Of a stretch of 64,000 nucleotides of DNA, positions 44,251 to 55,338 are shown piece after piece; the first letter of the stretch is position 1, and each line of letters begins with the position of its first letter. This stretch comes from a virus. The notes under the pieces are model-generated. The model saw only the letters and a list, made by a program, of their open reading frames with translations, was not told the origin of the DNA and made no database searches. The translations under genes were made by a program, and so were the position numbers. Location: the IMG/VR virus record IMGVR_UViG_3300021378_000004; one strand, given 5' to 3'.

Positions 44251-44658
44251 ATGCCAAAAATATCTGAAAATACTGGCGTTGAAATGCCAATACGAAATCT
44301 ACTGTCAATTATTCTGGCAGTGGCTGTAGGCGTATGGGCATATTTTGGTATCATAGAAAGACTGAATAAGTTAGAAACAGACATTACACTAATGTCATCT
44401 GACTTAGAGAAAAATACAGAGTTTCGTATCAAATGGCCACGTGGTGATATGGGTTCTCTACCTGCAGATGCAGAACAATTCATGTTAATTGAACATCTTG
44501 CTGGTCAGTTAGAAAAACTCGCAAATAATATTGAAACTGGCAAAGCTCCGTACGATCAACAACAAAAGCTTACACTTGATTTTTATAAGTCGAGAATTGA
44601 AAAACTTGAAGATCAAATAGAGAAGCTAAAAGATAAAGTATTAAACGGAAAACACTAA
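44251..44658 (+). CDS. Membrane-anchored coiled-coil protein
   Basis: N-terminal TM segment, EFRIKWPRG, coiled coil. Confidence 0.65.
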   Translation: MPKISENTGVEMPIRNLLSIILAVAVGVWAYFGIIERLNKLETDITLMSSDLEKNTEFRIKWPRGDMGSLPADAEQFMLIEHLAGQLEKLANNIETGKAPYDQQQKLTLDFYKSRIEKLEDQIEKLKDKVLNGKH

Positions 44659-44876
44659 TGGAAATATTTACAGGTTTTATTTTATTAATGTTTATGAGTG
44701 GAGACGTTAAACCGACTGAGTTTACACCTCGCGACTCGATGATGGAATGTTTGAAAGTGAAGAGAAAGATTAAAAGGACTCAAGGTCCTGGTGGTCCTAG
44801 GTGGGTTTGCAAACAAGGCAAACTTGAAATGGAAATTAAAAACGGTGAAAAACACCCACTGAAAATACTCGAATGA
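44658..44876 (+). CDS. Small exported protein with two Cys
   Basis: Coupled to the upstream gene; CLKVKRKI...WVCK. Confidence 0.55.
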   Translation: MEIFTGFILLMFMSGDVKPTEFTPRDSMMECLKVKRKIKRTQGPGGPRWVCKQGKLEMEIKNGEKHPLKILE

Positions 44877-45091
44877 CACATGCTTTTTTATTAATGGTTT
44901 ACTTAGGTAAACAGGTGACAAGTCAAGATATGTATTTTAGAAATATTGATAACTGTTTATATTATGCTCAGCGTCTTACTAAACAACCATCTGTGCCAAA
45001 TAGAATTGCTGACGATGATGCGCCTAAAAGATTATTTTATACTGCAGTATGCGTACCTAAACGCATAGGTGGTGATCAAAAAGTTTATTAA
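44873..45091 (+). CDS. Small hypothetical protein with two Cys
   Basis: MYFRNIDNCLYYA...TAVCVP. Confidence 0.55.
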   Translation: MTHAFLLMVYLGKQVTSQDMYFRNIDNCLYYAQRLTKQPSVPNRIADDDAPKRLFYTAVCVPKRIGGDQKVY

Positions 45092-46369: not shown

Positions 46370-46418
46370 ATATACTATATAATGATGCTAAAGAAATTTA
46401 TTATATGAGGAGAGATTA

Positions 46419-46607
46419 GTGCGAACTAAGCAAATCAACAGGCCAGATAGTGGTGCACTAGCTCTTTTTGCGTGTCTTCGCTATGAGGAAGCAACATTAA
46501 AAAATGTTACAGACTTTGAAGAACGGTGGGACATAACAGATGCAGAACGTCAAATTATTCTTAAATGGATAACAAAGCGTATGGAAGATATAAAAAGCAA
46601 GTTATAA
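46419..46607 (+). CDS. Hypothetical protein
   Basis: GAGGAG SD, GTG start. Confidence 0.55.
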   Translation: MRTKQINRPDSGALALFACLRYEEATLKNVTDFEERWDITDAERQIILKWITKRMEDIKSKL

Positions 46608-46610
46608 ATA
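46603..46610 (+). promoter_or_regulatory. Late promoter of tmRNA
   Basis: TATAAATA just upstream of the tmRNA acceptor piece. Confidence 0.7.
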
Positions 46611-46615
46611 CTACA

Positions 46616-46952
46616 TAACGATGAAACAAAGCGAAAGGTTTGCTGGACTCGGGGGCGGTACCCGACAGCTCCACCAAAATAAGTCTTATGGATGATGTAC
46701 TACTTTGGGAATATAGAAAGACATTAGTTAAGTGGATATGCATAAATAATTATTCACCACGACACGCAAGACTTATCTTGATGGGGCTGAAATAGGATCG
46801 ACAGGTACGTAATAGCGATGTGGAGTTATCCGGATGTAAGCTCGGTTAATGCGAACAAAACGACAAATGCAAACGATAATTTTGCACCTCAAGAGTTAGC
46901 TCAAGCAGCTTAATTCTTATGAGCCCGGAGGAGCTTGGAAACAGAATCCTCC
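46616..46952 (+). ncRNA. ssrA: Permuted two-piece tmRNA (alphaproteobacterial type), tag ANDNFAPQELAQAA
   Basis: The 3' tRNA-like half GGACTCGGGGGCGGTACCCGACAGCTCCACCA (ends 46676) precedes the 5' half GGGGCTGAAATAGGATCGAC (46783); tag frame 46869-46913; ends approximate. Confidence 0.93.
46688..46795 (+). CDS. 35-aa ORF in the tmRNA intervening segment
   Basis: MDDVLLWEYRKTLVKWICINNYSPRHARLILMGLK; no clear SD. Confidence 0.3.
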   Translation: MDDVLLWEYRKTLVKWICINNYSPRHARLILMGLK

Positions 46953-46954
46953 AC

Positions 46955-47200
46955 AGATTTCCTGAGGTGAGTACGTGTTGCAACACTACTTATAAAAAAA
47001 CCGGGATTCACGTGTGCACTTTACGAGGTGCGGCGACGTAGGTGGGCTACCAAGACGGATAAGGTAGACTCGATATAAGAACGTAAAATTACCTACACGG
47101 CGGGGCGGGCTGGACGCACGAGGGAACTAAAATAGTCCTGCTAAAAAAAGTGTGATGACTTAATACATCCGCGTGGAGGAATTGTTACCTCCACACCTTT
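46955..47200 (+). ncRNA. Unclassified GC-rich structured RNA candidate
   Basis: Non-coding, GC-rich for this genome, several hairpins and a long-range GTAGGT/ACCTAC pairing. Confidence 0.5.
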
Positions 47201-54217: not shown

Positions 54218-54459
54218 GGTGTCACAAAGAGGTCCCTCAGACACTCGCTGAGGGACGAAGCGTACAGTAGATAGGTGGTACTACCTCTATATAAAGGGGG
54301 GTCTATATTTGGAAAGTACGAAGGGGCCGTAGATGGTCACTAGTATATCGCGTCTCTGTAATGATTCAGAAGTTTTTTTCAGAAACCTTTTATTTAAATT
54401 TTTTTTCTCTGGAAAATTTCGTCTCTCTACCTTTTTTCAGAAAGCATATAGATAATAGT

Positions 54460-55149
54460 ATGTCACACTTAATATGTAATATCCCCAACCAAAAGGTATG
54501 GGTACGCCGTGAGTATCTGAGAGATCTTCAAGATGGTCATGGAGAATTCGTCGAAGGCCACTGGGTATCAGCAAAGAGCCTGCCAGGTCGTGCCTTTTAT
54601 TTTGAGACTTTCCTGCCAGAATACGGAGCCTTATTTGATAAACTCCCTATAAGTGCATTTGTATCTGATCCTGAGACTCCCTCTATAGATATGGCATTAC
54701 CTGATCTACAGTTCTGGAATTGTATGGACTATGGTGTTACTTGTATACAGAAACAATTCATTGGATCTATGGATTTTGAGATATATACAAAGAATCATGG
54801 ATTTATGAAAGGTCAATACATTGCAACCTTAGATAACTACCATGTACACGCAGACGAGATTGATTATTCTACTGCTGAACAGCCAGATGAACACAAGTCT
54901 TTTAATTTGTTGGAATTGGAGAATGGGCAGTATTGTTTATATCCGAATAACCGAATGAGAGTGTATGATAATAGCCTCACTCCGAAAAATCCGAAGATGC
55001 CAGACTTCCGAGTCTCTACTGAATACTATCAGGTTGAGAACGGAAATGAGTACAGGCTCGGAGATACGGAGGAGTACTATTACGATATCGATAAAGACAG
55101 CGATGATGATACTCTACCATCTACTGTATTATTGAATCAAGGCTGCTAG
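54460..55149 (+). CDS. Conserved phage hypothetical protein (probable start MSHLICNIP)
   Basis: VRREYL, GALFDKLPISAF, LQFWNC, EHKS, NGQYCLYPNNR. Confidence 0.75.
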   Translation: MSHLICNIPNQKVWVRREYLRDLQDGHGEFVEGHWVSAKSLPGRAFYFETFLPEYGALFDKLPISAFVSDPETPSIDMALPDLQFWNCMDYGVTCIQKQFIGSMDFEIYTKNHGFMKGQYIATLDNYHVHADEIDYSTAEQPDEHKSFNLLELENGQYCLYPNNRMRVYDNSLTPKNPKMPDFRVSTEYYQVENGNEYRLGDTEEYYYDIDKDSDDDTLPSTVLLNQGC

Positions 55150-55154
55150 GTTTA

Positions 55155-55250
55155 CTAGGCCGCGTGTTTGCGATAGTTCAGTATCTTATGAACTTGAGCA
55201 CGTCTTCGCGCCTGTACAAACTTCATCCATTGGTATGGTCTGTAAGTCAT
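55155..55250 (-). CDS. 31-aa basic peptide downstream of the glutamine riboswitch (not in ORF track)
   Basis: SD GGGAGG; MTYRPYQWMKFVQARRRAQVHKILNYRKHAA. Confidence 0.65.
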   Translation of the reverse strand: MTYRPYQWMKFVQARRRAQVHKILNYRKHAA

Positions 55251-55277
55251 GTGTCACCCTCCCTGTAGTATGGTTAG

Positions 55278-55327
55278 GTGCGTTCCTTCAGCGATCGCCT
55301 ACTTCCGCCCGTATCGGGTGAACGTAA
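55278..55327 (-). promoter_or_regulatory. Glutamine riboswitch (glnA RNA motif)
   Basis: Minus strand CGTTC-A-CCCG-ATA-CGGG-CGGAAGTA-GGCGATCGCT-GAA-GGAACG: P1, P2, and E-loop P3 architecture. Confidence 0.8.
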
Positions 55328-55330
55328 TAC

Positions 55331-55338
55331 TATTTATA
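55331..55338 (-). promoter_or_regulatory. Late promoter driving the riboswitch transcript
   Basis: TATAAATA on the minus strand, 6 nt upstream of P1. Confidence 0.75.

Follow-up and report, generated by a model that had tools for sequence, protein, structure and literature searches.

A type 1 glutamine riboswitch in front of an unannotated 31-residue peptide: a putative nitrogen-status unit in an uncultured marine T4-like myovirus

Introduction

Glutamine is the cell's readout of its nitrogen supply, and nitrogen limits the production of phages in the ocean. The locus described here, located on the minus strand at positions 55155–55338 of a 64,000-nt stretch of viral DNA (IMG/VR record IMGVR_UViG_3300021378_000004; the whole stretch is called the window below), raises the question of whether a compact RNA structure in front of a very short gene is a genuine glutamine sensor, how it would control that gene, where the pair originated and what the encoded peptide would do in the infected cell.

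Glutamine riboswitches are known in T4-like cyanophages (PMC9602691, PMC9964418), and they were described in the phages Melnitz and Mosig and in pelagimyophage contigs by Buchholz et al. (2022; PMC9004378). The novelty of a phage-borne glutamine riboswitch, implied by a sequence-only reading of the present locus, was therefore not upheld, phages of heterotrophs being among the carriers already published (PMC9004378, PMC9602691). In Melnitz the switch was interpreted as a part of the tmRNA gene and as controlling tmRNA (PMC9004378). In Synechocystis sp. PCC 6803 the leader of gifB contains a type 1 switch, with which glutamine raises expression in vivo (Klahn et al., 2018; PMC6212724). In the mechanism proposed there, a C located just 3' of P1 and its neighbors are base-paired to the ribosome site as long as glutamine is absent, and binding of the ligand draws this C into a long-range pair (PMC6212724).

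Results

Identity of the aptamer and its promoter

The Rfam scan of the whole window produced a match to the glutamine riboswitch model RF01739 at 55326–55277 on the minus strand with a score of 55.4 bits (E 1.8e-9) at a gathering score of 35 bits, so that the glnA-class identity proposed from the letters alone was borne out by the covariance model. The match spanned model positions 1–53 of 53 and agreed at all highly conserved positions. The type 1 aptamer (glnA RNA; 55277–55326, minus strand) included, by its sequence on the same strand, the stem P1 (CGUUC at 55324–55320 with GAACG at 55285–55281), the P2 hairpin CCCG/CGGG (55318–55308), the junction CGGAAGUA (55307–55300), the P3 hairpin GGC/GCU (55299–55290) and the segment GAAG (55289–55286). 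The sequence-only reading had described a compact three-stem RNA: its P1, P2, junction and GAAG were confirmed, while P3 had been omitted. The conserved junction and E-loop bases (CGGAAGUA ... GAAGGAACGCA, at 55307–55300 and 55289–55279) were all present, including the C just 3' of P1.

In nearly all of the approximately 90 distinct phage hairpins available for each stem, P2 and P3 were closed with at least three pairs of varying identity (TA/AT/CG/GC), in comparison to mostly 0–1 pairs in the shuffled hairpins. Judged from this covariation of P2 and P3, the three-stem junction is kept by compensatory changes, and the element is, by its sequence and conservation, a genuine type 1 (glnA-class) glutamine riboswitch, with the binding of glutamine itself as a prediction.

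A T4-type late-promoter motif, TATAAATA, was located at 55338–55331 on the minus strand, 6 nt upstream of P1, and was recognized by its sequence and by the conservation of its position. The window is AT-rich and contained 15 copies of TATAAATA versus 16.6 expected, i.e. not above chance. The positional profiling showed a difference between viral and cellular copies: of the 136 distinct viral contexts, 98 had TAAATA 5–13 nt upstream of the aptamer (with a mode of 6), compared to 6 of the 28 cellular contexts (Fisher p 1.4e-6), and its position in the viral contexts was kept despite differing sequence further upstream. On account of this conserved position, a late transcript starting at the aptamer can reasonably be inferred for the viral copies; its first nucleotide would be that of the aptamer or located 1–2 nt before it. 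As a motif of conserved position, the late promoter suggested upstream of the riboswitch by the earlier reading gained support. A late-transcription coactivator is annotated in Melnitz. Contigs from the RNA libraries (metatranscriptome) of one study matched 55084–55307 exactly and covered the neighboring genes as well, such contigs showing neither strand nor transcription.

Coding capacity of the downstream sequence

The aptamer was followed by an ORF of 31 codons and a stop at 55250–55155 on the minus strand (ATG at 55250, TAG at 55157–55155), which had never been annotated. Relatives of the encoded peptide were found in 46 viral loci, all of them (46/46) with an aptamer directly upstream. 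The first 27 residues were well conserved, with 14 invariant residues among seven homologues. In the 31 distinct coding sequences the entropy was 0.61 at the third codon position versus 0.35 and 0.37 at the other two, 44% of the codon differences were synonymous, and the peptide frame was the sole frame open in 31 of 31. From the association with the aptamer, the conservation at the protein level, the codon-position pattern and the single open frame, all of them comparative sequence evidence, we conclude that the ORF is real as a coding sequence. The unannotated basic peptide of 31 residues postulated in the sequence-only reading is therefore a conserved product missed by gene callers.

The peptide had a pI of 11.5 with eight K/R and no acidic residue. 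The AlphaFold2 model consisted of a single helix at residues 5–30 (mean pLDDT 84.8), which was predicted not to be amphipathic, its hydrophobic moment being below the shuffle mean. Searches in Pfam, NCBIfam and PHROGs produced no match, the ESM Atlas and the PDB profile search no usable relative, and the exact peptide sequence was absent from a collection of approximately 15 billion predicted proteins. Neither a Pfam match to DUF4278 (PF14105, the IF17 domain) at E up to 0.1 nor a profile relation to the riboswitch-linked DUF4278 peptides (hhalign probability 1.4%) was detected; the YRPxQW of the peptide resembles the YRG repeats of DUF4278 faintly and not significantly. A link to a family of MxLWxxYCR peptides is only suggestive: the two were joined by single linkage in blastp-short, yet the hhalign probability was 19%.

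Leader folding and covariation

The segment directly 3' of P1, CACCU (55280–55276, minus strand), was identified by folding and covariation as a putative anti-ribosome-site element; in the published structure, the conserved base corresponding to its first C takes part in a long-range pair that depends on the ligand. It is separated by 12 nt from the ribosome binding site GGGAGGGUG (55263–55255, minus strand), which was recognized by sequence and fold and was conserved in all 46 related loci, in agreement with the strong SD noted previously. The 3' part of GGGAGGGUG, AGGGUG (55260–55255), is complementary to CACCU, and the ATG is located 4 nt beyond it. In the minimum free energy (MFE) fold of the leader CACCU was paired with AGGGUG and P1 was unformed, the sequestering helix being short (5–6 pairs). 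With these, all the minus-strand elements listed by the sequence-only reading, i.e. the late motif, P1, P2, the junction, the ribosome site and the ORF, were located.

In the 111 distinct leaders of the loci retrieved, P1 was nearly always followed by CA, and the next bases varied in concert with the ribosome site, as judged from counts that ignore kinship: AGUG close to the start codon was a feature of 16 of the 29 leaders starting with CACU and of none of the 82 others (p 8e-12), GAUG of 4 of 14 CAUC leaders versus 1 of 97 others, and GGUG of 33 of 44 CACC leaders versus 18 of 67 others. This covariation of anti-site and site recurred across different peptide families. No terminator-like hairpin was present between the aptamer and the ORF, nor after the ORF. 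The MFE fold, the covariation, the absence of a terminator-like hairpin at these two places and the gifB precedent together suggest that the unit would act as a translational glutamine-ON switch, the direction being adopted by analogy from gifB of Synechocystis.

Distribution in viruses

A DNA pattern of the aptamer core was present in at least 120 viral contigs, and nearly every copy listed had, within approximately 20–35 nt downstream, a ribosome site with a short ORF, the latter belonging to several peptide families; other phage peptides in the same slot matched PF14105 (DUF4278). Tandem aptamers 9–10 nt apart, as in the cellular copies, were observed in the viral loci L013, L053, L080, L095, L101 and L104. 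In the family of the window most phage copies had one aptamer, and two related loci kept a tandem pair.

The insertion site of the cassette in the window was common to the loci L121, L133 and L134 only, of which L133 and L134 alone had the phrog_3704 neighbor. In many related phages the cassette was located near the tmRNA, between homologues of the window genes 44658–44876 and 44873–45091; this arrangement was seen in L130, L136, L149, L152 and L153, and the pair (44658–45091) is adjacent in the window. At this second insertion site the cassette was likewise convergent with its neighbor. The presence of at least two alternative sites in the phage group indicates that the cassette is mobile among related phages. 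In ten viral contigs that were either related or riboswitch-bearing, all of them fragments, no psbA was found; another viral contig (L050) had psbA, which indicates that the aptamer is present also in true cyanophages.

Distribution in bacteria

Bacterial genomes, taken as one genome per species, were searched with a pattern combining the 3' half of the aptamer with the phage-type tail CACYTAAC, and 23 stretches matched. They included peptides from members of the SAR116 order that were approximately 80% identical to the core of the window peptide, started with MTYRPYQW or close variants and were located behind tandem glutamine aptamers. The carriers were a complete chromosome of Candidatus Levibacter (L185) and a 711-kb contig of Ca. 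Marisalimonas, both belonging to Puniceispirillales, i.e. the SAR116 order, as well as single-cell genomes of SAR116 and MAGs of alphaproteobacteria, with one MAG contig of 1.5 Mb. The neighbors of the SAR116 peptides were ordinary chromosomal genes, encoding an EamA transporter, an oxidoreductase, a GST and a substrate-binding protein. From the occurrence of the peptide family both in the phage group and in such ordinary SAR116-order settings, capture from a host is the most likely origin of the phage gene, which was most likely reduced to one aptamer in most phages and placed under a late promoter.

The riboswitch was found in 14 of 121 sampled SAR116-order genomes. As judged from the distinct downstream genes that were obtained, its cargo was the micropeptide in several of them and elsewhere either an Amt-like membrane protein (motif recognized by eye) or gltB (Pfam-confirmed); this use of the same riboswitch in front of Amt-like and gltB genes places the micropeptide in a nitrogen regulon by association. 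The tandem pair before the micropeptide was the sole RF01739 locus in each of five such genomes. The sampled SAR116-order genomes had one riboswitch locus each, with one kind of cargo seen per genome. In the SAR116-order loci L209–L212 and L196/L217, the Amt-like genes were preceded by tandem aptamers with a different, longer leader and gltB by a single aptamer.

Two more groups of marine bacteria had short ORFs in the same position. In six marine genomes of Burkholderiales/Betaproteobacteria (L182, L187, L194, L198, L179 and L197) tandem aptamers preceded a peptide of approximately 35 residues with the motif MN[LM]WxQYC, accompanied by a gene for a 4HBT thioesterase in L182, L187, L194 and L198, the four of the six whose neighbors were annotated. 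If the genomes of the L182 type are relatives of OM43, this would contradict the published view that glutamine riboswitches are absent from Methylophilaceae. In Pelagibacteraceae (L178, L189) a single glutamine aptamer was followed by a protein of 64–70 residues with the motif NGNGTSGY...GKVLGH, which is present as a hypothetical protein in many SAR11 genomes, including strain IMCC9063, and also in many viral contigs (L039, L090 and others; phrog_32989).

Phage affiliation and probable host

The 64-kb window is a part of the genome of an uncultured marine T4-like myovirus, with PHROG matches including the major head protein, DNA polymerase and helicases. No close DNA match to it was found among 50,697 phage records, and searches of isolated phages by megablast/blastn with the region and by tblastn with the 31-residue peptide produced nothing. 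Its major capsid protein was 67% identical to that of phage C48C1, 60–63% to those of Melnitz and Pelagibacter myophages and approximately 59–61% to those of cyanomyophages. The gene convergent with the peptide ORF (54361–55149, plus strand; 262 aa, phrog_3704) ends 5 nt from the peptide stop and was considered as context outside the unit. The phrog_3704 protein is conserved in T4-like cyanophages and had no Pfam match; its deposited labels are inconsistent (PurM, ferredoxin, transcriptional regulator, virion structural protein).

A permuted tmRNA of the alphaproteobacterial type was located at 46562–46955 on the plus strand (124.9 bits), at a distance of 8.4 kb from the riboswitch and on the opposite strand. 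Its tag, ANDNFAPQELAQAA, starts with ANDNFAP and was near-identical to the tags in related viral contigs; the tags were ANDNYAPVAAAA in SAR116-order genomes, starting with ANDNYAP, and ANDNYVPVDYALAA in Melnitz. The DNA similarity of the window tmRNA to the SAR116 genomes was confined to the conserved arm. The alpha-type tmRNA, the tag start ANDN[FY]AP shared with SAR116 and the presence of the peptide relatives in SAR116-order genomes point to a SAR116-like bacterium as the probable host, an assignment based on the similarity of 27 peptide residues and on the tmRNA type. The apparently non-cyanobacterial host of the sequence-only reading is accordingly probably right, given the alphaproteobacterial type of the tmRNA and the SAR116-order relatives of the peptide.

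Related systems

The gifB (IF17) leader of Synechocystis sp. PCC 6803 (PMC6212724) has several key properties in common with the window: the same aptamer class in the 5' leader of a small basic protein, bases 3' of P1 that can pair with the ribosome site, and a glutamine-ON logic, which is predicted for the window. A further resemblance is that the cellular relatives of the peptide are behind the only glutamine riboswitch locus of their genomes. In contrast, the effector there is a DUF4278/IF17 protein and here an unrelated single-helix peptide of 31 residues, and the former system is cyanobacterial and NtcA-controlled, while the latter belongs to a phage, with cellular relatives in alphaproteobacteria, and has a T4-type late motif. 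Short DUF4278 peptides behind glutamine-II (Downstream-peptide, RF01704) and glnA-type RNAs in marine picocyanobacteria and T4-like cyanophages (Weinberg, 2010, PMC2864571; PMC9602691) share with the window the combination of a sensor with a very short conserved ORF and the presence in T4-like marine phages, but the window has the three-stem type 1 aptamer and a peptide without YRG repeats. The tandem glnA RNAs of marine metagenomes precede amt, gltB, glnA and PII genes (Weinberg, 2010; Ames and Breaker, 2011), and the SAR116-order relatives are likewise tandem, with Amt-like and gltB genes in sister genomes; the window differs from them in having a single aptamer and a micropeptide as the cargo instead of an enzyme or a transporter.

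Melnitz, a Methylophilales phage, and Mosig, a Pelagibacter phage (PMC9004378), belong to the same family as the window phage, i.e. Kyanoviridae-like myoviruses of marine heterotrophs, and share with it an alpha-type two-piece tmRNA, the aptamer and a similarly built expression platform. The Melnitz-type peptides, however, form a different family with a weak relation to the window peptide (19% in the profile test against the MxLWxxYCR family). The Melnitz aptamer (46398–46446) is followed by CACUUAAC and GGGGAGAGUG, corresponding to the anti-site and the ribosome site, and by an unannotated basic ORF of 32 codons (L172:1572-1667:+); the Mosig aptamer precedes an annotated protein of 51 residues, Mosig_00116. 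By comparison with the window, the simpler reading would be that the switches of Melnitz and Mosig control micropeptides. In the Melnitz record (MZ577097.1, approximately 46398–46568, plus strand; L174 999–1169) the annotation of ssrA extends at its 3' end into the aptamer. An annotated minus-strand CDS, MelnitzEXVC044M_89, overlaps the 32-codon ORF and looks spurious.

Discussion

The model that we regard as likely in its entirety is that of a self-contained monocistronic nitrogen-status unit in a marine T4-like myovirus. The late-promoter motif would direct a transcript beginning almost exactly at the type 1 aptamer. Without glutamine, as suggested by comparison and folding, CACCU would pair with AGGGUG and block initiation. 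Upon glutamine binding, the first base of CACCU would be held in the long-range pair of the aptamer, the ribosome site would become free and the 31-residue peptide would be made, with gifB as the model for the ON direction. The phage copy would most likely descend from a captured host gene, given a peptide family that occurs only behind glutamine aptamers, in the phage group and in SAR116-order chromosomes. At high glutamine the peptide would most likely bind to an acidic surface of a host protein of nitrogen assimilation or signaling; among such targets, glutamine synthetase alone has a precedent.

Parts of this model can be read differently. The switch might be glutamine-OFF, or might act on transcription or RNA stability and not via the ribosome site: how type 1 switches act is still described as unclear (PMC6212724), and the Amt-like leaders of SAR116 have a different platform, which is plausibly repressing. 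Such a mode is very unlikely for the window, where the anti-site and the ribosome site covary and no terminator-like hairpin is present between the aptamer and the ORF or after it, and gifB with the same aptamer type is glutamine-ON in vivo. The ORF product might even be irrelevant, with the unit acting as an RNA, for example as a glutamine-dependent antisense against the convergent gene at 54361–55149. The ORF stop is indeed only 5 nt from the stop of that gene without a terminator after it, and the cassette at the second insertion site is also convergent with its neighbor. However, the amino-acid sequence is kept while the codons drift, and the downstream neighbor differs between the insertion sites and in the cellular genomes; the conserved protein sequence and the differing neighbors make an antisense role extremely improbable.

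For the peptide itself, a more specific proposal than the preferred partner among nitrogen-assimilation or -signaling proteins is a glutamine synthetase (GS) inactivating factor, analogous to IF7/IF17 and shutting the host GS at high glutamine. Its sensor and regulatory logic would be those of gifB, the slot is occupied by DUF4278 (IF17-like) peptides in related phage contigs, and the peptide is Arg-rich and basic without acidic residues, like the inactivating factors, which bind GS electrostatically through arginines (PMC6316151). Moreover, one type I GS was present in all five riboswitch-bearing genomes tested (four SAR116-type and one betaproteobacterial). On the other hand, the peptide has no sequence or profile similarity to DUF4278 (hhalign 1.4%), the SAR116-order carriers already encode GlnE and PII, the classical GS control, which weakens the need for an inhibitor of this kind, and the host of Melnitz, whose phage has a peptide in the same slot, was reported without glnA (PMC9004378). 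What is shared with IF17/IF7 is the position behind a glutamine riboswitch, by position and comparison only, and we consider the GS-specific role unlikely. The prediction of a complex of two SAR116 GS copies with the cognate peptide scored 0.00, which is no evidence either way. The idea of the peptide as a substitute for a missing GS adenylyltransferase was rejected for SAR116, where GlnE and PII are present. Alternatively, the peptide might be a lysis-timing or late-infection factor unrelated to nitrogen enzymes, such as a nucleic-acid or ribosome binder, with glutamine as a cue only. The promoter position points to late expression, the very basic, non-amphipathic single helix, as modeled, would suit RNA or an acidic partner, and a link between riboswitch and lysis has been speculated on (PMC9004378). 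This role is rather improbable: close homologues are chromosomal in uninfected SAR116-order bacteria, without late promoters, which argues for a cellular ancestral function and against a phage-specific one in lysis, Amt-like and gltB genes are under this riboswitch in sister genomes, and no lysis genes flank the unit in the window.

What is new, compared to the already known sensor class and its carriage by phages, is the effector peptide family and its link to the SAR116-order chromosomes. A broader reading can be put forward tentatively, with rather low confidence: the combination of a riboswitch with a basic micropeptide might represent a widespread, unrecognized nitrogen-status module of streamlined marine heterotrophs (SAR116, the Burkholderiales/Betaproteobacteria group and Pelagibacteraceae), repeatedly captured by T4-like phages and rewired to late promoters, with the peptides acting as post-translational inhibitors of a nitrogen-assimilation protein, i.e. 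as a non-cyanobacterial counterpart of IF7/IF17. If this were true, both the published cyanobacteria-exclusive statement and the tmRNA-control reading for Melnitz would need revision.

The peptide family was missed by gene callers, and in several SAR116-order genomes its members alone are under riboswitch control. The results offer a clue to the host of an uncultured phage group, and they allow the riboswitch of Melnitz, a cultured phage, to be read more simply and in a way that is open to bench testing. In addition, the peptide becomes a candidate small regulator of nitrogen metabolism, new and amenable to testing, in marine bacteria of very high abundance.
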